Shown here: piece by piece, positions 24,696 through 62,224 of the stretch
How the letters are laid out: each line of letters opens with the position of its first letter
Position numbering within the stretch: the first letter of the stretch is position 1
Source: an uncultured Kiritimatiellota bacterium
GTDB lineage: Bacteria; Verrucomicrobiota; Kiritimatiellia; RFP12; DVOR01
DNA: 64,000 nucleotides
NCBI GenBank assembly: GCA_944389565.1
Contig: CALXMV010000001.1
Coordinates: forward strand, 51,924 to 115,923
Direction: 5' to 3'
The notes under the pieces: generated by a model
Database searches by the model: none
Seen by the model: the letters and a program-made list of their open reading frames with translations, nothing else
What the model was told of the DNA's origin: nothing
Program-made: the position numbers and the translations under genes

Positions 24696-24721
24696 CATGC
24701 GCAATCCTGGAGGACCATGAG

Positions 24722-27409: not shown

Positions 27410-27453
27410 ACGTCGGCGACTTGAAACCTCCCGGAGGGTTTGGGGCCACCCCC

Positions 27454-27573
27454 GAACCCTCCCGACTTTCACCCCGAACCCTCCCGACTTCCGGGTCAGA
27501 CCCTTAAGGGTTTCGCCCCAGACCCTCCCGACTTCCGGGTCAGACCCTTAAGGGTTTCGCCCCAAACCCTCCC
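27454..27573. repeat. Tandem palindromic repeat block (unit about 44 bp, GACCCTCCCGACTTCCGGGTCAGACCCTTAAGGGTTTCGCCCCA, two full copies plus partial copies)
   Basis: Seen directly. It contains the perfect palindrome CCCTTAAGGG and the GACCC...GGGTC inverted repeat, and shares GGGTTTCGCCCCAAACCCT with the 10.96-kb repeat. Confidence 0.8.
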
Positions 27574-27582
27574 ATGCGGGAT

Positions 27583-27593
27583 TGTGGTATCAT
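27583..27593 (+). promoter_or_regulatory. Extended -10 promoter element TTGTGGTATCAT placed about 7 nt upstream of the ATG at 27601 (predicts a leaderless mRNA for the giant gene)
   Basis: gggaTTGTGGTATCATgcatggcATGAGACTG is seen directly. The same element occurs in front of nusA, gpmI and the VWA gene. Confidence 0.5.
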
Positions 27594-27600
27594 GCATGGC

Positions 27601-32682: not shown

Positions 32683-32822
32683 ATTGTGAATGATGCGAAG
32701 CGTCCGTGGGTTCAGCGTTCAGGAGAGTTGAAAGAGCGATGGCTACATTCAGATGTGAAGGATGTGGCTTATCCATTAACGCTCCCACTTTTTCAGTTCA
32801 TGATTCAGAAAGGAAAGTTGAA

Positions 32823-36138: not shown

Positions 36139-36650
36139 GGGCGATGTTGGTTTTTGCCATGATGTTGGGGGTGGCGTGGTGCGCGTGGGGCGGGCTCGTG
36201 CCACGATTGCTGATCTTGGAGGCGGCGAGCGTGAAGGGGCAGGACCCGACGGCCCCGTGGACCGTTTACGGGACGTACCCGGCGGGGACGGTGGTGACGG
36301 GGAGCAAGCATTGCGAGGGGGCGGAGGGGACGGTCTGGAAGTTCGGCGTGTATGACTATCTGGGGATCACGCAGAACGTGACCTTCGCGTTGCGCTTCAA
36401 GGGGATGGATTGGACGGGGGAGGTGGGGAGCGCCAAGGTGGAGGGGATCTTCCGCCCGTACACGGACGGGGCCGTGACGTGCACGCTCGCGACGGTCTAT
36501 CAGGTGCGGGACGCCTTCTCGGCGCCCGACCGCGCGCCGACCTCCTATCCCGACGCGGCGATCCTGGAATGGAAGTTCCTCATTTTCTGGGAATGGGAGG
36601 GCGAGCCCGATGGCTCGTCGGGCGCGCTTTCGCCGGTTTCCGAAAAATAG
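36135..36650 (+). CDS. Small secreted protein of unknown function, high GC, translationally coupled to the paralog array
   Basis: It starts MRAMLVFAMMLGVAWCAWGG (signal peptide) and is 171 aa. Its ATGA overlaps the stop codon of paralog 3. Confidence 0.55.
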   Translation: MRAMLVFAMMLGVAWCAWGGLVPRLLILEAASVKGQDPTAPWTVYGTYPAGTVVTGSKHCEGAEGTVWKFGVYDYLGITQNVTFALRFKGMDWTGEVGSAKVEGIFRPYTDGAVTCTLATVYQVRDAFSAPDRAPTSYPDAAILEWKFLIFWEWEGEPDGSSGALSPVSEK

Positions 36651-36745: not shown

Positions 36746-37501
36746 ATGAAGGCAAAACGCAACCAAGGCTTCACGCTGATCGAGCTGCTCGTCGTGATTG
36801 TGATCATCGGCATTCTCGCAGGCTCGCTCTTCGGCCCCGTCACCAACGCCTTGCAATCCGCCCAGCGTTCGGGCATGATGCAGCGTGGCATCCAGATCGT
36901 CCGCGCCATCAACTCCGCCGATATGTCCGGCCGTTACGAGAGCCTTGCGTGGCCGGCCGACGAGAATCAGGACCTCAAGCCCTCCGAGTCCCTCACCGGG
37001 CCGGATATGTACCAGAACTTCACCTCCACCGCCGCCTACTTCCAGGAGGCCCTGTATGTGACGGAGTCCGACGTCAACCGCCGCAACCGCCTGAAGGTGC
37101 TCAAGGACATCGAGCCCTCCACGCTCGTCGCCCCCGGCGTCACCGCCGCCGCCGGCAACACCATCAACGACAACAACTGCGCGTGGGTCATCGCCAAGAA
37201 CACCCGCAACGCGCCGGCCAAGACCCCCGTCCTGGTCTCCCGTAACATCAACTGCTCCACCCTGGCCAGCACCGCCGGCAACGACACCTCCGCCGACGCC
37301 GAGACCCTCCTGACCACCGCCCAGCCCTTCGGCCAGAACGGTTGCGTGCTGATTTACAAGGACAACTCCGGCAAGGACTTCGATGCCGGCAACGTCTACG
37401 CCAAGGCGATGATCTTCGAGGCCGTCGGCTCCGACAACCTCACCAGCATCGAGCAGGGCGACGACGCGTTCGAGTTCCTCCAGAGCGGCTCCAGCAACTA
37501 A
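36746..37501 (+). CDS. Prepilin-type N-terminal cleavage/methylation domain protein (type II secretion pseudopilin-like)
   Basis: MKAKRNQGFTLIELLVVIVIIGILAG is the class III signal peptide with G/F cleavage motif and conserved Glu+5. An aaggag RBS is present. Confidence 0.8.
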   Translation: MKAKRNQGFTLIELLVVIVIIGILAGSLFGPVTNALQSAQRSGMMQRGIQIVRAINSADMSGRYESLAWPADENQDLKPSESLTGPDMYQNFTSTAAYFQEALYVTESDVNRRNRLKVLKDIEPSTLVAPGVTAAAGNTINDNNCAWVIAKNTRNAPAKTPVLVSRNINCSTLASTAGNDTSADAETLLTTAQPFGQNGCVLIYKDNSGKDFDAGNVYAKAMIFEAVGSDNLTSIEQGDDAFEFLQSGSSN

Positions 37502-47793: not shown

Positions 47794-49293
47794 ATGATGC
47801 AAAAACAGAATCTCTTCGCGACGGCCGCGGTGGCCGCGATGGTGGCCTTCGGCGCCGGATGCGACAAACCGGAGGCGCCGCAGGGCGAGACGCCGGCGGC
47901 AGAGACCCCGGTCGCCGAGACCGCCGCGGCCGACGACGCCGCGCAGGCGGCCTTGGACGCCCCGGCGGCGCAGCCCGGGATCGCGAGCGACATCGTCGCC
48001 ACGCCGCCCCCGCCGAAAGACACGGACGTCATCGCCTCCGTGGGCGACGCGACCCTGACCTGGGGCGAGCTGAACAAGCGCGTGGACGCGGAAATCGAGG
48101 CCTACCGTAAGGTCGCCGGCTCGATGTTTCCCTCCGAGCAGCTGCCCGCCTTCAAGCAGGAGGCGCGCGCCCAGACGGTCCAGCGCTTCATCTTCACGGC
48201 ACTCATCAAGAACGCCGCCGCCAAGGCCGGCGTGACGGTCGACGATGCCTATCGCGCGGAGAAGATCAAGGAGGTCGAGGCCCAGCCCGCCGCCCAGGGC
48301 AAGACCTTCGACGAGCTGGCCAAGACCTCCCCCCTGGGTGAGGCCCGTATGCGCGAGCTCTTCGAGGAGAGCCTGCTGGCCGAGAGACTCTTCGAGGCGG
48401 AGGTCTTCCCGAAGGCGACCGTCTCCGACGAGGAGATCCAGACCGAGCTGGCCAAGAACACCGCGGAGCGCAAGCTGGTGGAGGACGCGTTGGCCGGCTA
48501 CCAAAAGCAGCTCGCCGACGGCTCGGCGACCTTCGAGGCGCTCGTCCAGGCGAACTCGGTGATGAAGTCGCCCATGTCCGTTCCCGTGGCGGAGCTGACG
48601 CAGGGGCTCCCGCCCGAAGAGGCGAAGGCCTTCCAGGCGGCCATCGACGCGACCGCCGAGGGCGGCGTCACCGCGCCGGTGGAGCTGCCCGGGGTGGAGG
48701 CGATCTTCAAGGTGATCCGCAAGATTCCCGACGATGCCGCCGCCAAGGCGAAGGCCGAGGCGTTGCGCGCCCGCATCGAGAAGGGCGAGGACTTCGCGGC
48801 CGTGGCGCGCGAGGCCTCCGACTGCCCGAGCGGTGAGCGCGGCGGCGACCTGGGCGAGTTCGGCAAGGGCCGGATGGACCCGGTCTTCGAGCAGGCTGCC
48901 TTCACGCAGAAGGTGGGCGAGCTTGGCCCCTTGGTCAAGTCCTCCTTCGGCTACCACATCATCAAGGTGACGGCGCGTGACGACAAGGCCGGCACGGCCC
49001 AGGCGAGCCACATCCTGGTGCGCCCCGCCACGGTGCGCCTGCTGCCCTTGGCCATGCGGAAGCCGGGGGCGCTGGACGCCGAGGAGCTTCGCGCCATGCT
49101 CACCGACCAACGCCGCCGCCTGGCGGTGCGCGACTACATCGAGGCGCAGCGCACCGAGCAGGGCGTGACCTGCTCGCTTTTCCCCGAGCTCGCCGCGCCC
49201 GCGCCCAAGGCGCCTCAGGCCCCCGCCCCCGCGGAGGCCGCCGCCCCTGCGCCCGAGGCCGCGGCCCCTGAGGCCGCCCCGGCCGGGAAATAA
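47794..49293 (+). CDS. Periplasmic parvulin-type peptidyl-prolyl isomerase (SurA/PrsA-like) lipoprotein
   Basis: It has an aaggag RBS and lipobox AFGAGCD. The PpiC domain is ...FGYHIIKVTARDD. Confidence 0.7.
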   Translation: MMQKQNLFATAAVAAMVAFGAGCDKPEAPQGETPAAETPVAETAAADDAAQAALDAPAAQPGIASDIVATPPPPKDTDVIASVGDATLTWGELNKRVDAEIEAYRKVAGSMFPSEQLPAFKQEARAQTVQRFIFTALIKNAAAKAGVTVDDAYRAEKIKEVEAQPAAQGKTFDELAKTSPLGEARMRELFEESLLAERLFEAEVFPKATVSDEEIQTELAKNTAERKLVEDALAGYQKQLADGSATFEALVQANSVMKSPMSVPVAELTQGLPPEEAKAFQAAIDATAEGGVTAPVELPGVEAIFKVIRKIPDDAAAKAKAEALRARIEKGEDFAAVAREASDCPSGERGGDLGEFGKGRMDPVFEQAAFTQKVGELGPLVKSSFGYHIIKVTARDDKAGTAQASHILVRPATVRLLPLAMRKPGALDAEELRAMLTDQRRRLAVRDYIEAQRTEQGVTCSLFPELAAPAPKAPQAPAPAEAAAPAPEAAAPEAAPAGK

Positions 49294-49356
49294 GGGTTGC
49301 GCAACGGCCGCCCGTCGCGAAGACCGGCGGCCGTTTTCGTTTCAGCGGGTCACCGC

Positions 49357-51453
49357 ATGAGCAGACGCAAGAACAACCGTCGCGCCGAATCGCGCCGCAG
49401 GGCCGCCGTCCTCCGCCGGGGACAGCGGCTTCGCGCGCGCTTGCGCCTGGCGCTCGGCGCGGCACGCGCCGGGGTCGCGGAGCGGGCGGGGGAGGGCTTC
49501 TTCGCGGCGGTGCGGCGGCGGGGGATGTTCCCGTTGCCGGCGGCGCTCTTGGCGTGGCCGGCGCTGACGGTGCTCTTGGCGTCGGTGGGGTTCCTCTTTG
49601 GGGGGACGGTCTCGGCGTGGCATGGGGTGGCGGGATTCGTGTTGGCGGGGTGCCTGGCCTTGGTGGGCGGGGGCACGTGGCGGGATGGGTGGCGCCGGGT
49701 GGGGGCGCTCGCCTTGGCGGCGCTCGCGCTCTTCGCGGTGGATCAGAGCGTGGTGCTCTTCTCGTGGTGGGACGCGCAGGCTTATCACCTGACGGCCTCG
49801 CGTCTGCTCCTGGAGGGGTGGAACCCGGTGTTGGACGCGACGCGGGAGGCGATGCTGGCGGCGACGGGCGCGGACCCGACGACCTTCAATTCGTATCACG
49901 TGGCGTATCTGCCGCGGGCGGGGTGGGTCTGGAGCGCGGTGACGGCGGCGCTGACGGGCAATCTGGAGTCGGGCGATTCGCTGATCCTCATCACGGCGGT
50001 GACGCTGGGGGCGGTGGCGTGGGGGGTGACGCCCCTGCTCTTCGGCCAGGGGCGGTGGAAACGGTGGCTCTTCGCCTCGCTCGCCCTGCTGTCGCCGGGG
50101 GTGGTGGCGAGCGCGTTCTGCTTCGCGCAGGACGGGTCGCTCTACGCGTTGCTGATGACCTATCTGTTGGCGGCGTGCGCCTATCGGAAGACGGGGCGTA
50201 CGGCGTGGCTGACGTATCTGGCGTTGGCGCCGGTGCTGGGGTGCAACCTGAAGTTCACGGGGGTGGTCGGTTTCTGCCTCTCGGCGGCCGTCTTCACGAT
50301 CCCGGTGGTGTGGGCGGCGTTGCGCCAGGGGCGTGCGCGGGCTTTCTGGAAGTGGGTGGCGGCGAACGCGGCGGGGTTCCTCTTCGCCTTGGTCGTGGGC
50401 TTCTCGCCCTATCTCACGAATTGGGCGAATCACGGCGGCCCCTTCTACCCGGAGCACTCCTTCTCGAAGGACGAGCCTTTGCCGGCGATGACGGCCGACT
50501 TCGACTTGGTGAACGACGACGCCGCGGCGATGGGCTATTTCGGCCGCGTGACGAACGCCTATCTCTCCAAGTGGCTCGCCCACCGTTATTACGAGTGGAA
50601 GCTGGGGCGGAAACCCTTCAACCCCGTCTTCCACCTGGATCAGGTGAGCGGGTTGGGCTCGGGCTTCCGGATCGTCATGTGCCTGACGCTCCTGACGCTC
50701 TGCTTCACGCGACGGTGCGGGATGCCCTGGCTCTTGCTGGCGATCCTGCTGACCAGTTTCCTGCAACCGACGAAGACGATCGGGTATGTGCGCTACGTGC
50801 CCCAACTGTGGATGTTCCCGGTGTTGGTGGCTTTCAACGCGATGACGCTGAACGTGCCCCGCTCGCCGTGGGTCGGCCGCGCGCTCGGCGTGGCCGTCAC
50901 CGCCATCCTCGCCTCCAGCACCTATCTTTTCGCCATCGGCAAGCTGATCCTGACCTTCGGCATGAGCGCCTACGCGCTCTCGATCGTCGAGACGATGCGT
51001 TCCGAGCCGCACCCGCGCGCCTACGTGCTCTCCCTGCATGACCGCTACCGTGAGGATGGGCGTTGCCTGGCGGCGTGGGAGACGCTCCCGCCGGACATCC
51101 CCGCCCCGCACGTCTTCGACGACTATTATCACACCATCCTGCCCGCGAGCGGCGTGCGCGGCATCGCCTGGCAATCCCCCGCGCAGATGCGCGACCTGCG
51201 CGCCGCCGGCGAGCCGTGCTTCTACCTGGGCGAACACCTGTGGTATTGGCCGGAGGATCCCACGCGCATCCGCCACCCCCTCCTGCACCTCTACGCCGGG
51301 CACCCGCGCCGCCCGTACACCGCCGCGAACATCCTGCGCATCGCCTGCGACACCTTGCCCGGCCTCCCCGCCTATCTCTTTCGCGTCGGGCGGTTCCGCT
51401 GGGAGCAATTCCGGGACAATCTGACGGGGGAGGGCCCGCGCCATGCCCCGTGA
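49357..51453 (+). CDS. Large polytopic membrane protein (GT-C-like / unknown function)
   Basis: It has about 14 predicted TM helices and a basic N-terminus. It is first in a three-gene overlapping operon ending with the Lnt-TPR fusion. The start is uncertain (49357 or 49525). Confidence 0.45.
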   Translation: MSRRKNNRRAESRRRAAVLRRGQRLRARLRLALGAARAGVAERAGEGFFAAVRRRGMFPLPAALLAWPALTVLLASVGFLFGGTVSAWHGVAGFVLAGCLALVGGGTWRDGWRRVGALALAALALFAVDQSVVLFSWWDAQAYHLTASRLLLEGWNPVLDATREAMLAATGADPTTFNSYHVAYLPRAGWVWSAVTAALTGNLESGDSLILITAVTLGAVAWGVTPLLFGQGRWKRWLFASLALLSPGVVASAFCFAQDGSLYALLMTYLLAACAYRKTGRTAWLTYLALAPVLGCNLKFTGVVGFCLSAAVFTIPVVWAALRQGRARAFWKWVAANAAGFLFALVVGFSPYLTNWANHGGPFYPEHSFSKDEPLPAMTADFDLVNDDAAAMGYFGRVTNAYLSKWLAHRYYEWKLGRKPFNPVFHLDQVSGLGSGFRIVMCLTLLTLCFTRRCGMPWLLLAILLTSFLQPTKTIGYVRYVPQLWMFPVLVAFNAMTLNVPRSPWVGRALGVAVTAILASSTYLFAIGKLILTFGMSAYALSIVETMRSEPHPRAYVLSLHDRYREDGRCLAAWETLPPDIPAPHVFDDYYHTILPASGVRGIAWQSPAQMRDLRAAGEPCFYLGEHLWYWPEDPTRIRHPLLHLYAGHPRRPYTAANILRIACDTLPGLPAYLFRVGRFRWEQFRDNLTGEGPRHAP

Positions 51454-52984
51454 CGCGGAGCGCGAGGCCCAGGGCCTCCGCCGGTGGGCCATGGCCGCGG
51501 TGGCGCTCACCGTGGCGTGTTATCTGGCCAACATCCTTCTCGGCCCGCTCAATCAGGACGAGGGCTGGTACCTTTACGCCGCGCGGCGCCTGATGGCCGG
51601 CGACATCCCCCATCGCGACTTCTTCTTCACCCAGGGGCTGGTCATGCCCGCCGTCTACGCGCTCCTCGGTTGGCTCTGGTCGCCCTTCGGCGTCTTGGGC
51701 GGACGTGTCGTCACGGCGATCCTCGGCCTCACGGCGATCTTCCTGGCGGACGGCGCGCTCGTCTCCTGCTTCCGCCGCGACGACGAACGCTGGACGGCGC
51801 GTGTGGCGCTGTGGGCGTTCGTGGGGCTCTCCCTCTGGTACACCTACTTCACCGCCATCCCCAAAGCCTATGCCCTCTGCGCCCTCGGTCTGGCCGGCGG
51901 TCTGCGCCTGCTCACCTGCCTGCGCACGGAGGGCGAGACGGACGCGACGTGCGGGATCGACCCGCTCTGCGCGGCGGCTGCGGGGTTCCTCTTCGCGCTC
52001 TTGGCGGACGTCCGCCTCTCGATGGGCGTGCTGCTGCCCGTGGTGGCGCTGTGGCTGCTGTGGCGGCGGGCTTGGGCCGGGGCTTGGACGTGGCTTTGGT
52101 TCGGCCTGGGCGGCGGGGTGGGGGCGCTTCTCGCCTTCGGCCCGGAACTCCTCCTTTGGCCGCAGGCGTTTTTCGAGACGCAGGCCTTCCATGCCGCGCG
52201 TGCGCCGATGGGGCCGCTGGGCGTGGCGGGGTGCGTCGCGCGTTTCCTGCGCCACAACGCGCTGCTGGCCTTTGTCGGGGCGCTGGCGGCGTGGGTGTGG
52301 TGGGCGCGCCGCCCCGCGCCCAAACGCCCGCCCGCGGATCGGGCGGGTTTCCTGGGGCTGTGGCTCTGCGTCGGGCTCGCGCTCGCGGCGGCGCATCTCC
52401 TCGCGCCCGTCCCTTACGACGACTATCTCGTGCCGGCCCTTCTGCCGCTGGGCATGGCGGGGGCCTTCGCCTTCGCGCTCCTCCCCTTCGAGTCGATGCG
52501 CCAGGCGCTCGCGCGCGCGTTGCTGCTCGCCGCGGCGGCGGTCACCGTGGCGGGGTCGCCCATCGCCGAGGGGTGGTTCTCGCTCGGGCAGGACCGTTTT
52601 TGGGTGAATCTCAAGGAGGAGCCGGATCTGATGCGTCTGCGCCGCGCCGCGGCGATCGCGCGGGACGCCGCACTCCGCCTCGGCACGGACACGATCTGGA
52701 CGCAGGACACCTACCTCGCCGTCGAGGCGGGGCTGGAGGTCCCGCGGGGGCTGGAGATGGGGCCCTTCTCCAAGCCCGTGCCGTTTGACACTTCCGCGGC
52801 CCCGCTCGCCGCCTGGTCCGGCTACACCCATGCCCTGCGCTTCCCCGACCTCACCCCCGCGCCCGACAGGGAATCCCGCCTCGCGGGGTTGCGCGCCGCC
52901 TATCCCCGCGTCCTCGCCGTCATCCCCCGTTTCGGCCAACAGCACACCACGCTCGTCATCGCCGAGAGGAGCCGTGCCCCATGA
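51443..52984 (+). CDS. GT-C-fold glycosyltransferase (ArnT/PMT family, GT39/GT83-like)
   Basis: GPLNQDEGWYLYAARRLMAGDIP carries the first-loop DE(x)xY-type acidic motif after TM1, with about 12 TM helices. The gene overlaps both neighbours. Confidence 0.55.
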   Translation: MPRDAEREAQGLRRWAMAAVALTVACYLANILLGPLNQDEGWYLYAARRLMAGDIPHRDFFFTQGLVMPAVYALLGWLWSPFGVLGGRVVTAILGLTAIFLADGALVSCFRRDDERWTARVALWAFVGLSLWYTYFTAIPKAYALCALGLAGGLRLLTCLRTEGETDATCGIDPLCAAAAGFLFALLADVRLSMGVLLPVVALWLLWRRAWAGAWTWLWFGLGGGVGALLAFGPELLLWPQAFFETQAFHAARAPMGPLGVAGCVARFLRHNALLAFVGALAAWVWWARRPAPKRPPADRAGFLGLWLCVGLALAAAHLLAPVPYDDYLVPALLPLGMAGAFAFALLPFESMRQALARALLLAAAAVTVAGSPIAEGWFSLGQDRFWVNLKEEPDLMRLRRAAAIARDAALRLGTDTIWTQDTYLAVEAGLEVPRGLEMGPFSKPVPFDTSAAPLAAWSGYTHALRFPDLTPAPDRESRLAGLRAAYPRVLAVIPRFGQQHTTLVIAERSRAP

Positions 52985-55900
52985 AGAAACGTCTGCTTCA
53001 GTTGTTCGCCGCCCTGCTTTCCGCGGCTTTCGTGATCTCCCTGTGGCCGCCCTTCGGGCAGAACGGCAATGCGTGGTTCGCGTTGGTGCCGTTGCTGTTG
53101 CTCGTGCGGCAGGCGTCGGTGCGGTGGGCGTTGGCGTTGGGGTGGGTCTCCGGTTTCGTGGCGTGGGTGGGGCAGCTGTGGTGGATGCTCGCCCTCACCG
53201 ACAACGGCGGCCCCTGGCCGCTCATCGTCCCCGCCCTGCTCGGGCTGAGCGCGGTCCTGGCCTGCTTCGTCGCCGCCTTCGCCGGGCTCGCGGCCGCGCT
53301 TCGCCGCCGCTGCGCGGGGCGGCCCGGATGGGTACGGATCGGACTCGCGCTCGTGGTCGAGCCCGCGCTCTGGGCGGGCTTGGAGTGCCTGCGCGCCAAT
53401 CTCTTCACCGGCTTTGCGTGGAACCCGCTGGGCTTGGCGTGCGCGGCATGGACGCCGCTGCTCCAGACCGCGGCGCTGGGCGGCGCGGCGCTCACCTCGG
53501 CCGTCCTCGTCGCGGCCAACGGCGCCATCGCCACGCTCCTGGAGCGGCTGTGGTGGGCCGTTATCCGTCAGGCGCCCACGCGCTTCGCCGAGCGGCTCGC
53601 CCTGACGCTTGAGAGCATCCTGCCCTTGGCGGTCGTGCTGGCCGCCTTCGTCTGGGGGTTGGGGCGCATCCGCGCCTACGACGCGCTCTCGCCCGACGGG
53701 ACGGCCACGGTGGTCGTGGAGCGCACGGACGTGCCGTGCGTCTTCGCGCGTGGGGAGACCTACACGCCGCCGTGGCTTGAGGCCGACGGGGTCGCGGCGA
53801 TGGTCGGTTACGTCCATGCCGACCTGTGGCTGTGGCCTGAGAGCGCGCTCGCCGGGGTGCCCTCGCCCATGCCTGCCGCCGTCGCGCGGCATCTGGCCCG
53901 CCTTGCCGGGTTGGCGCGCGCGCCGCTCCTGATGGGTGGGCTCCACCGCGACGGGGAGGGCCGCGCCCACAACGCCGCGCTCCTCCTCACCGCGGATGGG
54001 CCAGACGCTGGGCAGGTCTACGCCAAGCGCCACCTCGTCCCCTTCGGTGAGTACATCCCCTTCGACAAGGCCTTCCCAGCGCTCCAACGCCTCGTCCCCA
54101 CCGGCGCCAGCCTTTACCCCGGCGAACGCGTCACCGCCGTGCGCCTCCCCTCCGGCCTGACCGTCGGCCCGCTCATCTGCTTCGAGGACACCGTCGCGGA
54201 GGTCGCCCGGCAGTCGGTGAACGACGGCGCGCGTGTCCTCGTGAACATGAGCAACGACGCTTGGTACGCTCCCTCCGCCCAACCTGCCCAGCACGCCCAG
54301 CAGGCCATCCTCCGGTGCGTCGAGACGGGCGTCCCCATGTTCCGCTCCACCAACCGCGGCGACAACACCGCCATCGACGCCGTGGGCCGCGCCGTCCCCA
54401 TCACCCTCTTCCCCACGCGCCTCCCGCTCACCGCCGCGCCCTATGCCTCGCTTTATCTCCGATACGGCGAATTGGTCTTCGGCGCGCCTTGCGCGCTCTT
54501 CGTCCTCTGCCTGGCCGCGTGGCTACTGCTTGCCCGTTTCCTCCGCCGGCCCGCGCCGGCCGCGGTACCGCTCGCCCTGCTGTGCCTCCTGGCCGCGCCG
54601 GCCGTGCGCGCGCGGTCGGCCCAAGACCTCCTCCCCACCGCCGGCATGGCCTTGGACGACGGCAACGTGAGCCTCGCCGAGAAGACCGCCTCCGCCATCC
54701 TCTCCACGCTCGGCATCTCCTCCGAGGAACGGGCTCGCGCCCAGGAGATCCTCATCCGCGCCGATCTGGAGCGCGGCGACGCCGCCGGCGCGCTCGCCCG
54801 CATCGAGGCCACGCCCGAGCTCCCCGCCGAGCGCCGCCTCGCCCTCTCCCTCGCCGCCTACAACCTGCGCCAGGACTTCGCGAAGACCGAGATCGCCTTC
54901 GCCGAGGCCGCACCCTCCGCCGACACCCCGTGGGGCGTTGCCGCGCTCCGGCTCGTCCTTCAGGCCGACCTGGAGCTCGGCCGCTCCGTCGAGGCCGCTG
55001 AGCGCTTCGCGGCGGTGGATGCCGCCAAGGGCGCGGACGCCCGCGCCCGCGCCGAGAACGCCCTGCTCTGGGTGCGCCGTTTCCCGAACCCGCGTTCCCG
55101 CGCCGCGCTCCTGGCCGCCGCGGCGCGGGCGGATCTGGGGGGCGTCTATCTGGAGTGCGCCTTGGCGCTTCCCGAGGCCTTCGCCGAGGCCGAGGACCGC
55201 TCCGTCGCGCTCGCCGCGCTGGACCGCCTGCTCGCGGAGGACGGCATCGGCTCGACCATCGAGGCGCGGTTGGCGTTGGCCGCCGCCGCGCTCGATCCGG
55301 ACGCCGCCGACGCCGTGTCCTATGCCCGGCGGGCCGTCGAGGTCGCCCGTGCGCCGGAGGTCCGTCAGGCGGCGCTCGCCATGCTCGGCGATCTGCTGTG
55401 CGACCGGACCGACGACGCGGCGTCCGTCGACGAGGGGCTCGCCTTGCTCGACCGCGCCGTGCGTCTTGACCCCTCCGCCGCGGACGCCCCCGCCCTGCAA
55501 TTGCGCATCGCCGAGACGCTGGCGCGGATCGGGCGCATGGACGACGCGCTCGCCGCCTACGACCGCTGGATCGCGAGCTATGACCTGCCCGCCCTGCGCA
55601 TCCGCGTCCGCCAAGGCCGGGGACGCGTCCTGCTCGCCGCCGGTCGCGCCGACGAGGCGCTTGCGGCGTTCGACGAGGCGCTGGCCTTGGCCGACACCGC
55701 GACCTTGCGCCACGACCTCATGGTCGAGGCCGTGGACGCCGCCATCGCCGCCGGGCGCCATGCCCGCGCCGAGACCCTGTGCCGCGACATCCTCGCCCAA
55801 GGCCGCGACCCGGCCGTCTCCCTGCGTCTGGCCCGCGCGCTCGAGGCGACCGGCGACGTGGAATCCGCCCGCAAGGCCTATGCCGACACCCGCGACGACC

Positions 55901-56955
55901 CGGCCGCCACCGAGGAGGACGCCTTCGTGGCGGCCATGCGCCTCGGCGCCCTCATGGCCGCGCAGAACCGCCCGCAGGAGGCCATCGCCGAGTTCACGCG
56001 CTTCCTCCCGCGCGCCCAGGGCCAGGCCCATCGCGACGCCCTCCTCCTCGAACGCGGCCGCACGTATTACGCCCTGGGGCGGATGGAGGCCGCGCGCGAC
56101 GACTTCGCCGCCGTCTCCGCCGCCGACCCCGGGCTCGCCTCCGAGGCGCGCTTCTTCACCGTCCTGTGCCTTTACGGCTTGGGCGACGACGACCGTGCCC
56201 GCACCCTCGCCCAGGAGTATGTGGCCGCCTATCCCGACTCCAAGCGCATCCCCGATATGCTCCTCTGGATCGCCAAGAGCGACTTCAACCGCGGCGACTA
56301 TGCCGCCGCCGGCGATGCCTTCCTCCAGTTCGCCGACCGCTGGCCGCAGGAGCCGCGGGTCCCCACCGCGCTCTACCTCGCCGCGCGCGCGGCCTTCCTC
56401 GACCAGGATTACGCGCACGCCGTCGAGCGGGTGAGCCGCCTGGCGCAGGCCTTCCCGCAGGCCGCCGTCCTGGCCGACGCCCGTTTCCTGCAGGCCGAGG
56501 CGCTCATCGAGTTGGCGCGCCATGGCGAGGCGGTCGACTTGCTCACCGCGCTCGTCCGCCGCTCCCCCAACGCCGCCTGGGTCGGCGAGGCTTACGGCCG
56601 CCTCGGCGATTGCCTGCTCATCACCGCCACGGACGACCCGGGGCGCTACGCCCAGGCCATCGACGCCTACCGCGAGGCATTGGCGCGTCTGGACTCGGAT
56701 CCCGACGCGAGCGTCCGCTACGCGGCCAAGATCGGCCGGGCGAACGAGAAGCGCAACCGTCTCGACGAGGCCGCCGAGCAATACACCCGCCTGCTTTATC
56801 GCGCGATCGCCGATCCGGGGCGTTACGCCGAGGAGGGGCGCGATTGGATTCGTCGCGCGGCGACCCGCCTGCGGGCCATCGAGGTCGCGCGCGGCAATCG
56901 CGCGGGCTATGAGACGCTCTCCCGGCGGCTTCGCGCTGCGGGGCTGCTTGACTGA
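52981..56955 (+). CDS. lnt: Apolipoprotein N-acyltransferase domain fused to an ~800-aa C-terminal TPR-repeat domain
   Basis: The N-terminal 8-TM plus CN-hydrolase domain carries the Lnt catalytic motifs WPESA (Glu), KRHLVPFGEYIP (Lys) and LICFED (Cys). A predicted TM follows, then Ala/Leu/Arg-rich TPR-like repeats through the stop. Confidence 0.7.
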   Translation: MKKRLLQLFAALLSAAFVISLWPPFGQNGNAWFALVPLLLLVRQASVRWALALGWVSGFVAWVGQLWWMLALTDNGGPWPLIVPALLGLSAVLACFVAAFAGLAAALRRRCAGRPGWVRIGLALVVEPALWAGLECLRANLFTGFAWNPLGLACAAWTPLLQTAALGGAALTSAVLVAANGAIATLLERLWWAVIRQAPTRFAERLALTLESILPLAVVLAAFVWGLGRIRAYDALSPDGTATVVVERTDVPCVFARGETYTPPWLEADGVAAMVGYVHADLWLWPESALAGVPSPMPAAVARHLARLAGLARAPLLMGGLHRDGEGRAHNAALLLTADGPDAGQVYAKRHLVPFGEYIPFDKAFPALQRLVPTGASLYPGERVTAVRLPSGLTVGPLICFEDTVAEVARQSVNDGARVLVNMSNDAWYAPSAQPAQHAQQAILRCVETGVPMFRSTNRGDNTAIDAVGRAVPITLFPTRLPLTAAPYASLYLRYGELVFGAPCALFVLCLAAWLLLARFLRRPAPAAVPLALLCLLAAPAVRARSAQDLLPTAGMALDDGNVSLAEKTASAILSTLGISSEERARAQEILIRADLERGDAAGALARIEATPELPAERRLALSLAAYNLRQDFAKTEIAFAEAAPSADTPWGVAALRLVLQADLELGRSVEAAERFAAVDAAKGADARARAENALLWVRRFPNPRSRAALLAAAARADLGGVYLECALALPEAFAEAEDRSVALAALDRLLAEDGIGSTIEARLALAAAALDPDAADAVSYARRAVEVARAPEVRQAALAMLGDLLCDRTDDAASVDEGLALLDRAVRLDPSAADAPALQLRIAETLARIGRMDDALAAYDRWIASYDLPALRIRVRQGRGRVLLAAGRADEALAAFDEALALADTATLRHDLMVEAVDAAIAAGRHARAETLCRDILAQGRDPAVSLRLARALEATGDVESARKAYADTRDDPAATEEDAFVAAMRLGALMAAQNRPQEAIAEFTRFLPRAQGQAHRDALLLERGRTYYALGRMEAARDDFAAVSAADPGLASEARFFTVLCLYGLGDDDRARTLAQEYVAAYPDSKRIPDMLLWIAKSDFNRGDYAAAGDAFLQFADRWPQEPRVPTALYLAARAAFLDQDYAHAVERVSRLAQAFPQAAVLADARFLQAEALIELARHGEAVDLLTALVRRSPNAAWVGEAYGRLGDCLLITATDDPGRYAQAIDAYREALARLDSDPDASVRYAAKIGRANEKRNRLDEAAEQYTRLLYRAIADPGRYAEEGRDWIRRAATRLRAIEVARGNRAGYETLSRRLRAAGLLD

Positions 56956-56964
56956 CCCGGCGGG

Positions 56965-57008
56965 AAACGCGCGTGGCGCGCCCATTTGGGTGCGCCACGC
57001 GTTTTTTT
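56965..57008 (+). terminator. Bidirectional rho-independent terminator between convergent lnt-TPR and flavoprotein genes
   Basis: aaACGCGCGTGGCGCgcccatttgggtGCGCCACGCGttttttt is seen directly. Confidence 0.65.
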
Positions 57009-57019
57009 GTCCTTCGCGG

Positions 57020-57556
57020 TCAGAGCGCGCGGCCGAGGGTCTTGGCCTGTTCGAGGTAGGGGGAGGCCTTGGCCTCGGCAGGGTGGGTGAGGCCGGCGGC
57101 GCGGAGGGCGAAAGCCTCGCGGGGGGCGTCCAGGCAGGCGAGGTAGCCACGGAAGGCCTCCAGCGTGCGGTCCATGCAGGCGGGGTCGTCGTCGGCGGAG
57201 GTCATGACGAAGCCAAAGGTCTTGCCGCCCATCCGCTCATAGTAGGGGCAGGAACGGTCGATGAGCGTCTTCATCTGGGCGGAGAGGCTGTAGAAGTAGA
57301 CAGGGGTGGCCATGACGATGACGTCCGCGGCGAGCATTTTCTCCTGGATGGCCTTGGCGTCGTCCTGGATGGGGCAGGGCTTGCCGTGGAAGGAGCAGAG
57401 CCCGCACCCGGTGCAGGGGGCGATGCGATGATGGCCGAGGAAGAGGTACTCCACGTGGTGGCCGGCCTCGCGCGCGCCTTCGGCGAGGGCTTGGCAGAGG
57501 GTGTCGGAATTGCCGTCCTTGCGCGGCGAGGAGGAGAGGATGAGCACGTTTTTCAT
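57020..57556 (-). CDS. NADPH-dependent FMN reductase / iron-sulfur flavoprotein family
   Basis: MKNVLILSSSPRKDGNSDTL has the flavodoxin-like SPR motif, and a 4-Cys cluster (CTGCGLCSFHGKPC) is present. Confidence 0.7.
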   Translation of the reverse strand: MKNVLILSSSPRKDGNSDTLCQALAEGAREAGHHVEYLFLGHHRIAPCTGCGLCSFHGKPCPIQDDAKAIQEKMLAADVIVMATPVYFYSLSAQMKTLIDRSCPYYERMGGKTFGFVMTSADDDPACMDRTLEAFRGYLACLDAPREAFALRAAGLTHPAEAKASPYLEQAKTLGRAL

Positions 57557-57613
57557 GGGCGAAGGCCTTTCATGGGTTCAGGATGGCGCATACTTTACAC
57601 CTTGGCGCGCGCT

Positions 57614-58364
57614 TCAGGTCAAGGGTCGGTTTTGCTCCTGCTCCTGTTCCGCCTTTTTCTGCGCGCGGCGCAGGCGGCGGGCCTTGAGGCGCTCCAGGAC
57701 ACGCGCCTGCCGGGCGCGGCGTTCGCCGGTGATGCGGCGCATGGCCGCGCGGGCGACGTAACCCTGGGCCACGCCGAAGGCCACGAAGAAGGCCGTCACG
57801 AGCAGGATCACCAGCCCGGGCCGGTCGGCCCACAGCGCCTTGAGCCACGCGATCGCCGGGGCGTAGAGCGTCGGCATGAAGAAGACCACGATGGCGCTCT
57901 GGAGCAGGCTGGAGAGCGCGGAGTAGAGGACGTAAAGGCCGAAGTGCACGCGGAGCATCCCGGCGGCGAGGAGCGCGGGGGTGCGGATGCCCGGGGTGAA
58001 GCGCACGATGAACATCGTCTTGCCGAGGTGGTTGTCGAAGAAGCGCGCGCAAGCGGCGATCTGCTTCTGGTGGCGGCGCACCCAGCGCAGACGCATGACG
58101 TAACGCATGGCGAAGCGCACCGGCAGGTACATCAGCAGGTCGCCGAGGAAGACCCCCCAGAAGGTGCCGTGGAGCGCGGTGAGCGTGCCCATGATGCCCT
58201 CGGAGATCAGGGGCGGGACGATCGTCCAGCAGACCACGTTCTCGAAGAAGAGCGTGGCGAAGGCCGTGAGGAAACCCTGCGTCCACGGGTAATCGACGGA
58301 GGCCTGGATGGCCTCGACGAGCGCGTCGAGATTGATCCAGGCGGCGGCGAGCAGTTCGTTCATG
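57614..58364 (-). CDS. DedA/SNARE-associated family membrane protein
   Basis: FLTAFATLFFENVVCWTIVP and GKTMFIVRFTPGIRTPALLAAGM are the DedA signatures. The upstream part of ORF 57614..59155 is antisense to ftsI and is rejected. Confidence 0.7.
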
Positions 58365-60177
58365 GCGCGCGCTCCTTGGTGTGCTTGTCGGCGGGGATGC
58401 CGAGGTAGTGGCCGATTTCCTCGGCCACGGCCGCGAAGGTGGGCGCGGCGACGTTCCCGCCAGTGTGATAGGTGCCCCGTGGCCGCTCGATGGTGACCAG
58501 GATGGCCAGGCGTGGGGCCGTGGCCGGGAAGATCCCCACGAAGGTGGCGTTGTAGTCGGTGTTGTTGTAACGGCCGTTGACGGGGATCTGGCCGGTGCCC
58601 GTCTTTCCCGCCACCGTGTAGCTGCGCAGGGCGGCGCGGCGGGCCGTGCCGCCGGCCGCGGGGTCGGTGACGGCCTGGAGCATGTCGAGCATACTGGCGC
58701 AGACGCGCGGGGAGAGCGGGCGGCCGAGCACCTCGGGGGCGTTGGCGCGGATGGGCTCGCCGGTGTGCGAGCGGATCTCCCGGAGGATCGTCGGGCGCAT
58801 CCGCAGGCCGCCGTTGGCGATGGTGGCGTAGGCGTTGCAGAGCTGCACGGCGGTGACGGCGATGCCCTGGCCCAGGGTCATGCGCGTGGGCGAGAGCTTG
58901 CTCCAGCGCGAATAGTGGTGCAGGATGCCCGCCTCCTCGCCGGCGAGCTCGATGCCCGTGCGCTCGCCGAAGCCCATCGCGCGGAAGGCCCGCCACAGGG
59001 GCTCGTACTGGTGCGGCATCCCGTCCGCGGGCCGGGGCTCGGCCATGCGCAGGCCGATCATCGCGGTGCCGATGTTGGAGGATTTGGCGAGGATCTCGCG
59101 GGGCGTGACGATGCCGTAGGCATGGTCGCGGAGCGGCCGCCCGGCGTAATACCACACGCCCGCGCGCCCCACGTCGAAGGTCGTGCGCTCGTCGATGATG
59201 CCGTCCTGCAGCGCCATGGCCACGGTGATCGCCTTCATGGCCGACCCGGGCTCGTAGTTGCGCGAGATGGCGATGTTCTTCCAGAGCGCGGGGTCCACGC
59301 GCCCGTAGTCCTGCGGGTCGAAGCTAGGCAGCGTGGCCATCCCGAGCATCTCGCCGGTGCGCACGTCCTGCACCAGGATGATGCCCGAATCCGCGCGGAA
59401 ACGCTGGATGGCCTCGCCGAGCGCCCGCTCGATGATGTACTGCACGTTGTTGTCGATCGTCAGGTAGACGTCGTGCCCATGGACGGCCGGCGTGTTCTCG
59501 ATCCGCCGTTCGCGCAGCTCGCGCCGCCGGGCGTCCACGACCATCCGGATGAGGCCGTTCGTGCCGGCGAGCGCCCGGTCGAAGACCTGCTCCACGCCGT
59601 ACACGCCGTCGCCCTGGCGGTTCACGAACCCCAGCACGTGCGCCAGGCGCGCGCCGTTGGGGTGGGAACGCACGCTGAGCGTCTCCGAGAAGTTCACGCC
59701 GGCGATGCGGTTCGTCTTCGCCGAGGGGCTGCTTCGCGCGGCGAGCTCGCGGAGGATGGCGTCGTCGGAGACCTCGCAGACGAACGTGGTGTACGTGCGC
59801 CGGCCGCCGCTGGTGTGGTAGCCGTTGAAGGCGTCGAGCAGGCGTTCCTCGTCCACCCGCAGCAGACGTGCCAGATCGAGCGGGAGCGTCGCGCGGTTCA
59901 CCGAGGGCAGTTGCAGCTTCGGGTCGCGCTGGTCGATGTAGATCCGCCGCCCGGAGATGCTCTCGGCCAGCACCACGCCGTTGCGGTCGAGAATCCGGCC
60001 GCGCAGGCCGAGCGGGCGCTGCTCGCGGAAATAATTGTTGCCCGGCGCCTCCTCCCCAGGGGGCTCGATCAGGTGCAGGGCGATGAGCCGGTAGGCGACG
60101 CAGCCGAAGAAGAACAGCACGATGCCCAGGGCCACGCACATCCAGAACCGCGCCGTCTGCCGCTCCGCATGCTCCAT
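58360..60177 (-). CDS. ftsI: Peptidoglycan D,D-transpeptidase FtsI / PBP (class B)
   Basis: It has an N-terminal TM, a dimerisation domain, and transpeptidase motifs SAMK (SxxK), SSN and KTGT. It is the last gene of the mraZ-rsmH-ftsL-ftsI cluster. Confidence 0.85.
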   Translation of the reverse strand: MEHAERQTARFWMCVALGIVLFFFGCVAYRLIALHLIEPPGEEAPGNNYFREQRPLGLRGRILDRNGVVLAESISGRRIYIDQRDPKLQLPSVNRATLPLDLARLLRVDEERLLDAFNGYHTSGGRRTYTTFVCEVSDDAILRELAARSSPSAKTNRIAGVNFSETLSVRSHPNGARLAHVLGFVNRQGDGVYGVEQVFDRALAGTNGLIRMVVDARRRELRERRIENTPAVHGHDVYLTIDNNVQYIIERALGEAIQRFRADSGIILVQDVRTGEMLGMATLPSFDPQDYGRVDPALWKNIAISRNYEPGSAMKAITVAMALQDGIIDERTTFDVGRAGVWYYAGRPLRDHAYGIVTPREILAKSSNIGTAMIGLRMAEPRPADGMPHQYEPLWRAFRAMGFGERTGIELAGEEAGILHHYSRWSKLSPTRMTLGQGIAVTAVQLCNAYATIANGGLRMRPTILREIRSHTGEPIRANAPEVLGRPLSPRVCASMLDMLQAVTDPAAGGTARRAALRSYTVAGKTGTGQIPVNGRYNNTDYNATFVGIFPATAPRLAILVTIERPRGTYHTGGNVAAPTFAAVAEEIGHYLGIPADKHTKERAP

Positions 60178-60222
60178 GCCGCCGACCTCATCCCCGTGCG
60201 TGCGCCCGCCGCCTTGCCGGGC

Positions 60223-60627
60223 TCAGCGTCGCACGCGTGCCATCGGGTCGCCCGTGCGGTGCGCGGCGCGCCCTTGCGCCAGGGTCCGGCGCAACGTCTC
60301 GGGCATCCGCACCTGACCGTCCGCCGCCACGAAGGCCGTGCGCTCGGGCGGGGCGTAACGCAGGCTCAGCCCGTTGCGCGCGATCGCCTCGTCAAGGCGG
60401 CTCGGCTCCGTCAGCCGGTTCCATTCGGCCTGGCACCGCCGCAGGGACTCCTCCTGCGAGCGTTGCTCCTGCTCCAGCATCCGGATCTGCGTGGCCTCCT
60501 GGCTGTTGCCGAGCGTCAGCAGCCCGAGCGTCACCCACGGCGCGGCCATGACCACCACCAACGTGCTCACGCCCACGCCCGCCAGATTGAGATGGAACGT
60601 CCTCCGCTTCCTGTTACGCTTCGCCAT
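60223..60627 (-). CDS. ftsL: Cell division protein FtsL-like
   Basis: A 134-aa protein with a single TM and a coiled coil (QIRMLEQEQRSQEESLRRCQAEWNRL), positioned between rsmH and ftsI. Confidence 0.65.
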   Translation of the reverse strand: MAKRNRKRRTFHLNLAGVGVSTLVVVMAAPWVTLGLLTLGNSQEATQIRMLEQEQRSQEESLRRCQAEWNRLTEPSRLDEAIARNGLSLRYAPPERTAFVAADGQVRMPETLRRTLAQGRAAHRTGDPMARVRR

Positions 60628-61567
60628 TTTCCGCCGCCTCCCGTTTCCGCACGGCCCGCAGCTTCGCGCTTCGGGCCCGCGGGTTCCGCTCGATTTCCTC
60701 CGGCCGCGCCGTTACGGCCTTCCTCAAAACCCAATCCGTGCGCGGCGTCTCCCCGCGCCAGACGCTCCCGCCCTGCTGGAGCGCCACCTCCTGCCCGCAA
60801 TGCGCGCGGAAGAAGGTCTTGACCGCGCGATCCGTCAGGCTCTCGAAGGTGATCACCGCCAGGCGCCCGCCGGGCTTCAGCAGACGCAGGCCGGCCTCCA
60901 GGGCCCGCCGCAGGTCGCCCAGCTCGTCGTTCACGGCCATCCGCAACGCCTGGAAGACGCGCGTGGCCGGGTGCCGGCCCGCCGCGTGCGCGCCGCCCAC
61001 CGCCCCTGCCACGATCTCGGCCAGGCGCAGCGTCCGGTCGATGGGTGCCCTTCGGCGCTCTCGGTCGATCGCCCGGGCGATGGCCGCCGCGCGCCGTTCC
61101 TCCCCCAGGTCGCGGAACAGGCGCGTCAGCGCCTCCGTCGAGAGCGTCGCCACCAAATCCGCCGCCGTGGGCCCGCGGTCGTTGCGCATCCGCATATCCA
61201 GCGGCCCGTCCGCGCGGAAACTGAAGCCGCGCTCCGGCGTGTCCAGTTGGTCGCTGCTCACGCCCAGATCCAGCAAGATTGCGTCCGCCCCGTCGAAACC
61301 GTTGGCCGCGGCGATGGCCCCCAGATCCCCGTGCGCGCCCTGCGCCAGCACGTGCTCGCCGGGGACGCCCGCGCGCACGAGGTTGGCCCGCGCCCGCGCC
61401 AACGCCTCCGCGTCGCGGTCGATGCCCAGGAGGCGCCCCGTGGCCCCGGCCAGGCGCATCACCGCCGAGGCGTGCCCGGCCTGCCCCAGCGTGCCGTCCA
61501 CGTAGACGCACCCGGGCGCGGGCGCCAAGGCTTTCACCGTTTCCTCCAACAAGACGGGGATATGCAT
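60614..61567 (-). CDS. rsmH: 16S rRNA (cytosine1402-N4)-methyltransferase
   Basis: MHIPVLLEETVKAL...YVDGTLGQAGHA...ILLDLGVSSDQLD is the MraW/RsmH signature. Confidence 0.9.
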   Translation of the reverse strand: MHIPVLLEETVKALAPAPGCVYVDGTLGQAGHASAVMRLAGATGRLLGIDRDAEALARARANLVRAGVPGEHVLAQGAHGDLGAIAAANGFDGADAILLDLGVSSDQLDTPERGFSFRADGPLDMRMRNDRGPTAADLVATLSTEALTRLFRDLGEERRAAAIARAIDRERRRAPIDRTLRLAEIVAGAVGGAHAAGRHPATRVFQALRMAVNDELGDLRRALEAGLRLLKPGGRLAVITFESLTDRAVKTFFRAHCGQEVALQQGGSVWRGETPRTDWVLRKAVTARPEEIERNPRARSAKLRAVRKREAAENGEA

Positions 61568-61582
61568 GGCCGCGCCCCTCCG

Positions 61583-62089
61583 TCAGAGATCCAGCGCGTC
61601 CAACGCCGCGCCCAACGCCGCCTGATCCACCGCCGCGGCGGGCTCCAACGCCTCCGCCGCCCACACCTCGCCGTAGGTCACCGCACCCACGAAGGTGATT
61701 TTCGCCCCGATGCCCGCGAAGGCGAGCAGCCGGTCGCTGATCCGGATGCGGCCCTGTACGTCGAGCGGGAGCTGCTCGGTGTTCTGGCCGATCACCCGGA
61801 GCTTCCGCGCCACCTCGGGGTCGGCGAAGCGCCGCGCGCGGAGTTTGGCCTGGATTTCCTGCATCCGCTCCGTGGAGAGCAGGCGCAGGCATTTCGCGTG
61901 GGGATCGGCCATGACGAAGACATAGCGCGGGCCGCCCATCGCGTCGCGCCATCCCGAGGGGATGGTCACGCGCCGCTTGGGGTCCAACGCGTGCGTGGCG
62001 CTGCCGGTGAACACGGCCGCGCCCCGCATCGCCGCGGAGGCCTCGTTGCTTTGCGTCTCGTCTTCCACTTCTGTGACCTTCTTTGACAC
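61583..62089 (-). CDS. mraZ: Transcriptional regulator MraZ
   Basis: It has duplicated SpoVT/AbrB-like halves (LDPKRRVTIPSGWRDAM and LDVQGRIRISDRLLAFAG). The true start is possibly an internal Met. Confidence 0.7.
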   Translation of the reverse strand: MSKKVTEVEDETQSNEASAAMRGAAVFTGSATHALDPKRRVTIPSGWRDAMGGPRYVFVMADPHAKCLRLLSTERMQEIQAKLRARRFADPEVARKLRVIGQNTEQLPLDVQGRIRISDRLLAFAGIGAKITFVGAVTYGEVWAAEALEPAAAVDQAALGAALDALDL

Positions 62090-62224
62090 TATTAAACACT
62101 TTCCCCCACCGTCCCGTCAAGGGAAATCCTTCGGGCTCTCACTTTTTCCCATGAAACGGCAAACGGTTCCGACGGGAGGACGCACCCGTGGCGGGGGCGG
62201 CGGCCCCCGCCGCACGCCCGTGCG

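Follow-up and report, generated by a model that had tools for sequence, protein, structure and literature searches.

Apolipoprotein N-acyltransferase (Lnt) is a well-studied enzyme and antibiotic target that usually stands alone, and its solved structures place both the N- and the C-terminus in the cytoplasm. A second group of membrane enzymes, the GT-C glycosyltransferases, carry catalytic acidic residues directly after their first transmembrane (TM) helix, and in TMTC1-4 and bacterial PMT_2-TPR fusions such an enzyme is joined to a luminal or periplasmic array of tetratricopeptide repeats (TPR) that presumably binds protein substrates. Corynebacterium glutamicum tightly couples the N-acylation of lipoproteins by Lnt (Ppm2) to O-glycosylation (PMC3460810). 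The locus described here, positions 49357-56955 of a 64-kb stretch (the window) of contig CALXMV010000001.1 from an uncultured Kiritimatiellota bacterium, brings related elements together in another arrangement: its third gene, g3, is a genuine, evolutionarily fixed fusion of neighbouring genes for Lnt and for a Sec-exported, ~800-residue periplasmic helical-repeat protein, preceded by two genes, g1 and g2, whose products are predicted to share the GT-C membrane fold. The fusion is a variant of a known enzyme which databases label simply as Lnt. Nothing specific on an Lnt-TPR fusion, on this cluster or on lipoprotein biogenesis in Kiritimatiellia was found in the searchable literature, and in a paper on Brucella EipB/TtpA, lnt and a TPR protein figure only as two distinct genetic interactors.

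Three open reading frames (ORFs) with overlaps at both junctions occupy the + strand of the locus. They were described in an initial annotation, were reproduced here, and emerge identically from an independent gene call on a near-identical ENA contig. Window positions 42961-64000 align to the ENA metagenome scaffold ERZ16268063:scaffold_309 (L001) at 98.7% nucleotide identity with 12 gaps; this scaffold is a distinct but closely related assembly or strain. A ribosome-binding site, GAGAGGAG, precedes the g3 start, and the three genes form a translationally coupled operon ending in g3, with the following features (lengths in amino acids, aa).

49357..51453, + strand: g1, 698 aa, stop codon TGA at 51451-51453
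51443..52984, + strand: g2, 513 aa, ATG at 51443, 11 nt ahead of the g1 stop
52981..56955, + strand: g3 (lnt::TPR), 1324 aa, ATGA at 52981-52984 common to the g2 stop and the g3 start
52981..54534, + strand: g3 residues 1-518, canonical Lnt with membrane domain, periplasmic nitrilase-like domain and TM8
53839-53841, 54025-54027 and 54178-54180, + strand: g3 catalytic codons E287, K349 and C400, respectively
54535..54615, + strand: g3 residues 519-545, fusion junction with basic cytoplasmic loop RFLRRP, hydrophobic stretch of ~15 residues and AVRA/RS motif
54616..55500, + strand: g3 residues 546-840, conserved periplasmic region with no Pfam match, second half weakly TPR-like
55501..56955 including the stop codon, + strand: g3 residues 841-1324, TPR array with TPR_16, TPR_2, TPR_6, TPR_19 and TPR_14 above gathering cut-offs

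The complete Lnt core with glutamate, lysine and cysteine motifs that was first proposed for the N-terminal part of g3 is borne out, and by every sequence criterion this part qualifies as an Lnt. Its Pfam domains are LNT_N (PF20154, residues 15-181) and CN_hydrolase (PF00795, residues 274-470), and it reaches 241.4 bits against the NCBIfam equivalog TIGR00546 (lnt), for which the cut-off is 132.9. In a phmmer search against the PDB, residues 5-507 align to the E. coli and P. aeruginosa Lnt structures at ~1e-23, with WPESA, KRHLVPFGEY and LICFED matching E267, K335 and C387 of solved E. coli Lnt. The corresponding E287, K349 and C400 are invariant among 26 homologues, and residues of the E343/E389 type are also retained. 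From established knowledge of the family, the Lnt part would be expected to N-acylate apolipoproteins, transferring a phospholipid acyl chain to the N-terminal cysteine of their diacylated forms by a ping-pong reaction of the E-K-C triad at the periplasmic face of the membrane.

Beyond TM8, g3 continues with a second hydrophobic segment (~residues 527-543) and then ~780 residues. The size agrees with the extension originally noted; its description as about 800 residues of TPR was overstated, since Pfam TPR matches are confined to ~838-1270, and ~55-60% of the extension is demonstrably TPR. Residues 841-1100 match five TPR families above the gathering cut-offs (TPR_16 68.5 bits, TPR_2 59.4, TPR_14 56.1, TPR_19 55.9, TPR_6 52.9), while residues 1101-1324 pass the Pfam thresholds for TPR_16, TPR_6 and YfiO, and residues 1098-1201 form a YbgF/CpoB- and BamD-like stretch that also matches YfiO. 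The CpoB/YbgF model TIGR02795 (cut-off 90.1 bits) is missed both by full-length g3 (79.0 bits) and by the TPR part alone (84.0 bits), and the CpoB structure 6G5S is a weak PDB match to the TPR part. Residues 546-840, which open with an invariant LLPxAxMAxDDGN motif, have no Pfam TPR match (best E 0.44). Comparison of sub-alignments by hhalign found ~630-840 weakly TPR-like (probability 46-62%) and detected no TPR similarity for ~546-630. Over its whole length, 546-840 is nevertheless homologous to the N-terminal portion of stand-alone TPR-family proteins.

Conservation establishes that the fusion is real. A search of 5.8 billion proteins returned 45+ full-length fused homologues of 1314-1398 aa and 39-67% identity, from independent ENA, NCBI, JGI and Logan assemblies (fused loci L083-L087, L141, L143 and L145); the few that are named bear the label Kiritimatiellae Lnt. 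It had been foreseen that a sequencing frameshift might have falsely joined two genes; an assembly frameshift was considered with it, and relatives in which lnt and the TPR gene are adjacent and unfused do exist. Yet the independent origin of the fused proteins, a junction kept in register across homologues and an identical ORF in two assemblies of the source organism make such an artefact vanishingly improbable. When all 1.84 billion cluster representatives were scanned by HMMER with the extension alone, 211 matched below 1e-30, nearly all of them stand-alone proteins of 794-870 aa that align from ~residue 20-45 to the end, their alignments beginning just past an N-terminal signal peptide. 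Where an NCBI name is present for these relatives, it is "tetratricopeptide repeat protein [Kiritimatiellia]". Three sister loci hold the two parts side by side as separate genes.

L089: PPIase (peptidyl-prolyl isomerase), g1, lnt (522 aa), TPR gene (797 aa); ATGA overlap of lnt and TPR gene, no g2
L090: PPIase, g1, g2, lnt (553 aa), TPR gene (802 aa); 222-bp gap between lnt and TPR gene
L147: g1, g2, lnt (522 aa), TPR gene (794 aa); 4-bp overlaps throughout

A neighbour-joining tree of the TPR parts, a distance tree without support values, places the unfused P0243, P0244 and P0245 between two fused groups, the main clade and a second one made up of P0043-P0048. This topology implies that the genes fused or split no fewer than twice, and so argues for persistent selection for linkage.

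The junction itself points to how the two proteins were joined. When it is aligned with the unfused genes of L089 and L090, the additional membrane segment of the window protein (TM9) matches the signal peptide of the unfused TPR protein residue for residue. Thus, the segment annotated ahead of the extension is present, while its origin differs from that of an ordinary extra TM helix: it is the retained Sec signal peptide of a formerly separate TPR protein, now acting as TM9 and possibly still cleaved. Among 26 aligned fused homologues the junction is conserved in register and abuts the conserved mature N-terminus; the sequence of the segment is poorly conserved, but the basic n-region, short h-region and small-x-small c-region are kept. 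Of 45 fused homologues, 36 passed a strict script for this n-h-c architecture, which requires small residues at -3 and -1; among the nine that it missed, five were seen by eye to close with a small-x-A motif as well. Since the C-terminus of Lnt is cytoplasmic and the retained signal peptide crosses the membrane once more, the established Lnt structures would place the extension in the periplasm, the same compartment as the Lnt active site. Conservation of the AxA motif also makes cleavage of the appendage plausible, at a putative signal peptidase I site within AVRA/RS. In five fused homologues (P0024, P0029, P0032, P0033 and P0035) the former Met-Lys-Lys initiator of the TPR gene is still present at the junction, and by internal initiation there the fused gene could still give rise to an unattached TPR protein that is exported. 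The locus thus offers an example from nature of a signal peptide converted to an internal membrane segment, with polyprotein-style cleavage as a possibility.

Fusions of Lnt to other partners turned up in the same protein search, namely to TatC (PF00902; P0054-P0057), MFS proteins (P0061, P0063, P0065, P0069, P0073), GT2 (P0058, P0062, P0064, P0067, P0072), SecA (P0050), an L,D-transpeptidase domain (P0060) and an alpha/beta hydrolase (P0052). The variety of such database fusions (TatC, MFS, GT2, SecA) could be taken to mean that the Lnt domain of g3 is a neofunctionalised paralogue, acylating a glycolipid amine or a protein glycine, with g1 and g2 building or modifying the substrate. Lnt-family enzymes with other substrates or fusion partners do exist, as in the Aat system, whose acyltransferase AatD reportedly acylates a protein glycine. 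We consider this very unlikely for g3, which scores far over the equivalog cut-off (241 against 133 bits) and retains the triad together with the E343/E389-type residues; moreover, the unfused sister lnt genes are of ordinary Lnt size, and the 64-kb window holds no lnt other than g3.

A wider gene neighbourhood has been conserved along with the fusion, beginning upstream of g1 with a gene not included in the operon as first drawn.

47794..49293, + strand: parvulin PPIase, SurA/PrsA-like, with lipoprotein signal peptide MMQKQNLFATAAVAAMVAFGAG/CD; start codon inferred

The product combines a parvulin domain (Pfam Rotamase, 105 bits) with a SurA-like N-terminal domain (SurA_N_3 and SurA_N_2), and its N-terminus (47794-47870) carries the lipobox AFGAG/C with Asp at +2. 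The window copy and those of five out of six related loci (L085, L086, L087, L089, L090) have a lipoprotein signal peptide, often with Asp at +2, and in these five the lipobox-bearing homologue likewise lies directly upstream of g1. Given this signal peptide, the PPIase is a predicted Lgt/Lsp/Lnt substrate encoded next to lnt. It is also the most divergent part of the comparison between the window and scaffold_309 (93% amino-acid identity). A pairing of the YfgM/PpiD kind, suggested by a TPR_21 match of 27.7 bits, was considered and dropped, as TPR families cross-hit and the window PPIase is a lipoprotein while PpiD is TM-anchored.

To follow synteny, the five products were each compared by tblastn with all fetched loci. 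The order PPIase, g1, g2, lnt::TPR is shared by the window, L085, L086, L087, L141 and L143; L084 has g1, g2 and lnt::TPR without the PPIase, and the most divergent locus, L083 (40% identity), has PPIase, g1 and lnt::TPR without g2. Flanking genes differ in every locus while the order within the cluster is kept, so that the three-gene order anticipated for related genomes holds, with two amendments: g2 is absent from L083 and L089, and the PPIase is an additional member. The conserved core is accordingly lipoprotein parvulin PPIase, g1, an optional g2, lnt and the TPR gene, and g2 is dispensable for the cluster. By contrast with g2, g1 co-occurs strictly with the lnt-TPR pair, in 11 of the 11 loci with enough upstream sequence. 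Among the matches listed for unfused Lnt from other lineages, including other Kiritimatiellia and Lentisphaerae, g1, g2 and the TPR gene are all missing from the surrounding 9 kb in each of 80 loci.

The proposal that g1 and g2 encode GT-C-like polytopic proteins is upheld at the level of predicted fold, ArnT/PMT-like in both cases. Conservation within the cluster is highest for the polytopic g1 product (47-85% identity), whose homologues, two remote matches excepted, are confined to the window's clade. An invariant D139 (in WWDAQAYH) falls in its predicted first periplasmic loop, after the third predicted helix, and its AlphaFold2 model (pLDDT 82, pTM 0.86) has two extra N-terminal helices. 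With more than 800 homologues, g2 belongs to a much wider family. Its invariant LNQDEGWY motif (D39, E40) directly follows TM1, and it matches ArnT in size and ends in a small periplasmic domain. A confident AlphaFold2 model based on its homologue alignment (pLDDT 90.6, pTM 0.92) retrieves ArnT (5f15) as the top Foldseek match in the PDB (E 1.8e-7, TM 0.58), followed by ALG9, ALG12, AftA/B, AglB, PglB and PMTs; ArnT is the best structural match of g1 as well. At the sequence level, neither g1 nor g2, with their 24 and 31 aligned homologues, belongs to any Pfam or NCBIfam family, PMT and PMT_2 included, stray single matches in the family searches (TMEM260-like and DUF6057) giving nothing usable. 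Profiles of both found no match among PDB sequences, and hhalign found no relationship between the two. They represent two GT-C-fold families currently left unannotated by sequence databases, and presumably use polyprenyl-phosphate-sugar donors. In both loci compared (L088:8001-11471 and the P0161 locus), distant g2-type homologues (~40% identity) are flanked by hsp33 and dxs, with a gap of 10 nt before dxs, and lnt is absent from the vicinity. The adjacency to dxs hints at a link to the supply of isoprenoids, i.e., of the polyprenyl carrier.

Such a gene content invites the idea of a dedicated machine for lipoprotein glycosylation and acylation, in which g1, g2 or both would transfer sugars from polyprenyl phosphate to lipoproteins, or to the N-terminal region of these, by O-glycosylation in step with Lnt, the TPR part would hold the unfolded substrate in the manner of the luminal TPRs of TMTC-type GT-C enzymes, and the PPIase would serve as substrate or helper. 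Two GT-C folds translationally coupled to lnt, the strict co-occurrence of g1 with the lnt-TPR pair, the predicted lipoprotein encoded upstream and the C. glutamicum precedent all speak in its favour. Nonetheless, the best structural match of both proteins is ArnT, a modifier of lipid A, rather than PMT, and neither matches the PMT or PMT_2 Pfam families; furthermore, g2 is missing from two clusters, and its distant relatives next to dxs are away from any lnt. Such a machine seems unlikely. On the C. glutamicum ppm precedent, g1 and g2 might take a lipoprotein as acceptor; with ArnT as the best structural match, lipid A or some other glycolipid is just as good a candidate.

The TPR protein has a life outside this cluster. 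A metagenome scan based on a six-sequence query alignment, with distant stand-alone members at 30-35% identity to the window extension, yielded 55 loci, and apart from the fused ones none of these had lnt, g1, g2 or the PPIase near the TPR gene. In all of the 16 long loci (among L092, L096 and L102-L138; L096:7623-13764 is an example) the TPR gene is followed directly by a gene of the MotA/ExbB/TolQ type and then one of the ExbD/TolR type. Further along come a membrane-anchored 245-aa protein without a family assignment (14 of 16), a BamB-like PQQ_2 propeller (12 of 16) and an ABC ATPase whose best NCBIfam match is LolD (13 of 16), and a GDSL lipase gene lies upstream of the TPR gene in 10 of 16; the Tol-, BamB- and LolD-like neighbours all score below curated cut-offs. 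The TPR relative of L096 itself passes the YbgF model (131.8 against 90.1) and the BamD-subfamily model (101 against 81.4). Because of these neighbours and model passes, the family looks like a large periplasmic envelope factor of the CpoB/BamD type found across Kiritimatiellia, and the neighbourhood may constitute a Kiritimatiellia-specific Tol-like envelope cluster.

These relatives lend weight to a more conservative explanation, in which the locus is a general envelope-biogenesis cluster without any dedicated complex. Lnt would then be the housekeeping enzyme, the TPR part a giant CpoB/YbgF-like, Tol-associated factor, and g1 and g2 glycosyltransferases for glycolipid or lipopolysaccharide, an assignment that suits the ArnT-like character of both. 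The fusion would be nearly neutral, produced by a small indel closing the ATGA overlap and tolerated since the signal peptide preserves both topologies and may still be cleaved. The ATGA overlap in the unfused L089 and L147 would indeed make a one-step fusion easy, close relatives hold both fused and unfused states, the AxA motif is kept, and the distant TPR member that passes the YbgF and BamD models adjoins TolQ/TolR-like genes. Neutrality is harder to reconcile with a fused state retained down to 39% identity and in two separate clades, with an lnt-TPR adjacency conserved although the flanks are scrambled, or with the restriction of g1 to loci in which lnt and the TPR gene are linked. While possible, and a stronger contender than the glycosylation machine, this explanation is not the one we would expect to hold.

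The reading we favour, and hold to be fairly probable, is that the Lnt::TPR fusion carries a scaffold linking lipoprotein maturation to envelope partners. The TPR part would act as a protein-binding scaffold present 1:1 with Lnt at the same membrane site, either remaining tethered or being freed by signal peptidase I at the retained AxA site, and would tie lipoprotein maturation to partners for which the g1/g2 GT-C enzymes, the lipoprotein chaperone and Tol/Lol-type machinery are candidates. This role is inferred from linkage only. Several observations weigh against it. Gene linkage is the sole basis for supposing that the products interact, so a physical or functional coupling of N-acylation with glycosylation would have to be understood in that light; the fold assignments of g1 and g2 rest on predicted models, and for g1 the Foldseek match is weak (E 0.017). 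Cluster membership is not rigid either, the PPIase being absent from L084 and g2 from L083 and L089. The window TPR part falls below the YbgF cut-off (84 against 90.1 bits) and is three times the length of CpoB, and the TPR-Lnt link is lineage-specific, since the distant TPR relatives are not near lnt.

Despite these points, the repeated joining of the two neighbouring genes provides good evidence that Lnt has a functional partnership as yet undescribed in diderm bacteria. It amounts to Rosetta-stone evidence for a dedicated periplasmic partner of Lnt in at least one diderm lineage, and the strictly co-occurring, family-less GT-C-fold g1 points to a dedicated partnership too. The organisms are uncultured and every functional step is an inferred one, but the locus raises the question of whether N-acylation is coupled to glycosylation, chaperoning or trafficking outside Actinobacteria. 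A bolder and quite improbable extrapolation would make the TPR protein a new Kiritimatiellia lipoprotein-biogenesis adaptor that docks substrates or carriers at the inner membrane. Across most of the class its gene would accompany those for a TolQR-like motor and a LolD-like ATPase, and in the window's lineage it would have been tied, and repeatedly fused, to Lnt together with g1, in a complex glycosylating lipoproteins or their lipid anchor during N-acylation. If true, such an adaptor complex would be a diderm counterpart of the actinobacterial coupling of acylation and glycosylation.

Two hairpins flank the operon.

56969..57009, + strand: intrinsic terminator (15-bp stem, 12 of the pairs G-C, followed by TTTTTTT), separating g3 from the convergent flavodoxin-like gene
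49306..49340, + strand: weak terminator-like hairpin, GGCCGCC...GGCGGCC then TTTTCGTTT, between the PPIase gene and g1

The former closes the g1-g2-g3 unit. The latter may be an attenuator or partial terminator, for which the evidence is weak, the count of such sites in the region being not above shuffled expectation. A promoter scan gave no sigma-70-like site, and an Rfam search of the whole window gave no matches. Convergent with g3 on the - strand (57020-62100) are genes for a flavodoxin-like reductase and then a DedA/VTT-family membrane protein, beyond which the dcw cluster begins (an ftsI-type PBP, a small ftsL-like ORF, rsmH and mraZ). Elsewhere in the window, which has a G+C content of ~70%, an island at 32706-36650 drops to 52-58% and holds four consecutive overlapping + strand ORFs (411, 365, 368 and 171 aa) essentially without Pfam match; it may have been horizontally acquired. 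Upstream of it, 27574-32682 encodes a 1702-aa protein with bacterial TSP3 repeats and a sub-threshold alpha/beta-hydrolase match, and after it, 36746-37501 encodes a prepilin-type N_methyl protein. The stretch 24641-27472 is spanned by an antiparallel pair of ORFs (922 and 925 aa) that overlap nearly throughout, with a Pfam match in neither. An ABC ATPase at 19817-20563 was considered as a Lol component and rejected, being part of an amino-acid transporter.

Several described systems share features with the locus and differ from it in others. With solved Lnt (E. coli and P. aeruginosa; PDB 5N6H, 5VRG, 6NWR; TIGR00546) g3 shares LNT_N, the nitrilase-like domain, the E-K-C triad and TM8, to which it adds a signal-peptide-like TM9 and a ~780-residue periplasmic extension, in an operon with two GT-C-fold proteins. 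Like CpoB/YbgF of the Tol-Pal system and BamD/YfiO, the extension carries TPR_6-type repeats. It is, however, three times larger than CpoB/YbgF, has a conserved ~290-aa N-terminal region without Pfam TPR match, lacks the lipobox of BamD, and is linked to lnt instead of a tol-pal operon, no tolQ, tolR or exbB/exbD adjoining g3 in the window, nor in most fused loci. Both g1 and g2 resemble ArnT (GT83), PMT (GT39) and the ALG-type GT-C enzymes in predicted fold, and the invariant acidic motif in the predicted first periplasmic loop of each may correspond to theirs; g1 and g2 depart from them in fitting no Pfam GT-C family by sequence. In contrast to TMTC1-4 and the PMT_2-TPR fusions, the TPR array is joined to Lnt and not to the GT-C protein. 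The actinobacterial ppm operon and Ppm1 (Rv2051c) likewise tie Lnt to glycosylation functions, by genetic linkage or by fusion. There, Lnt is paired with a cytoplasmic GT2 polyprenol-phosphate-mannose synthase, a domain for which g3 has no Pfam match, the Lnt-GT2 fusions P0058, P0062 and P0064 being separate, distant matches, whereas the partners in the window are GT-C-fold proteins and a periplasmic TPR protein.

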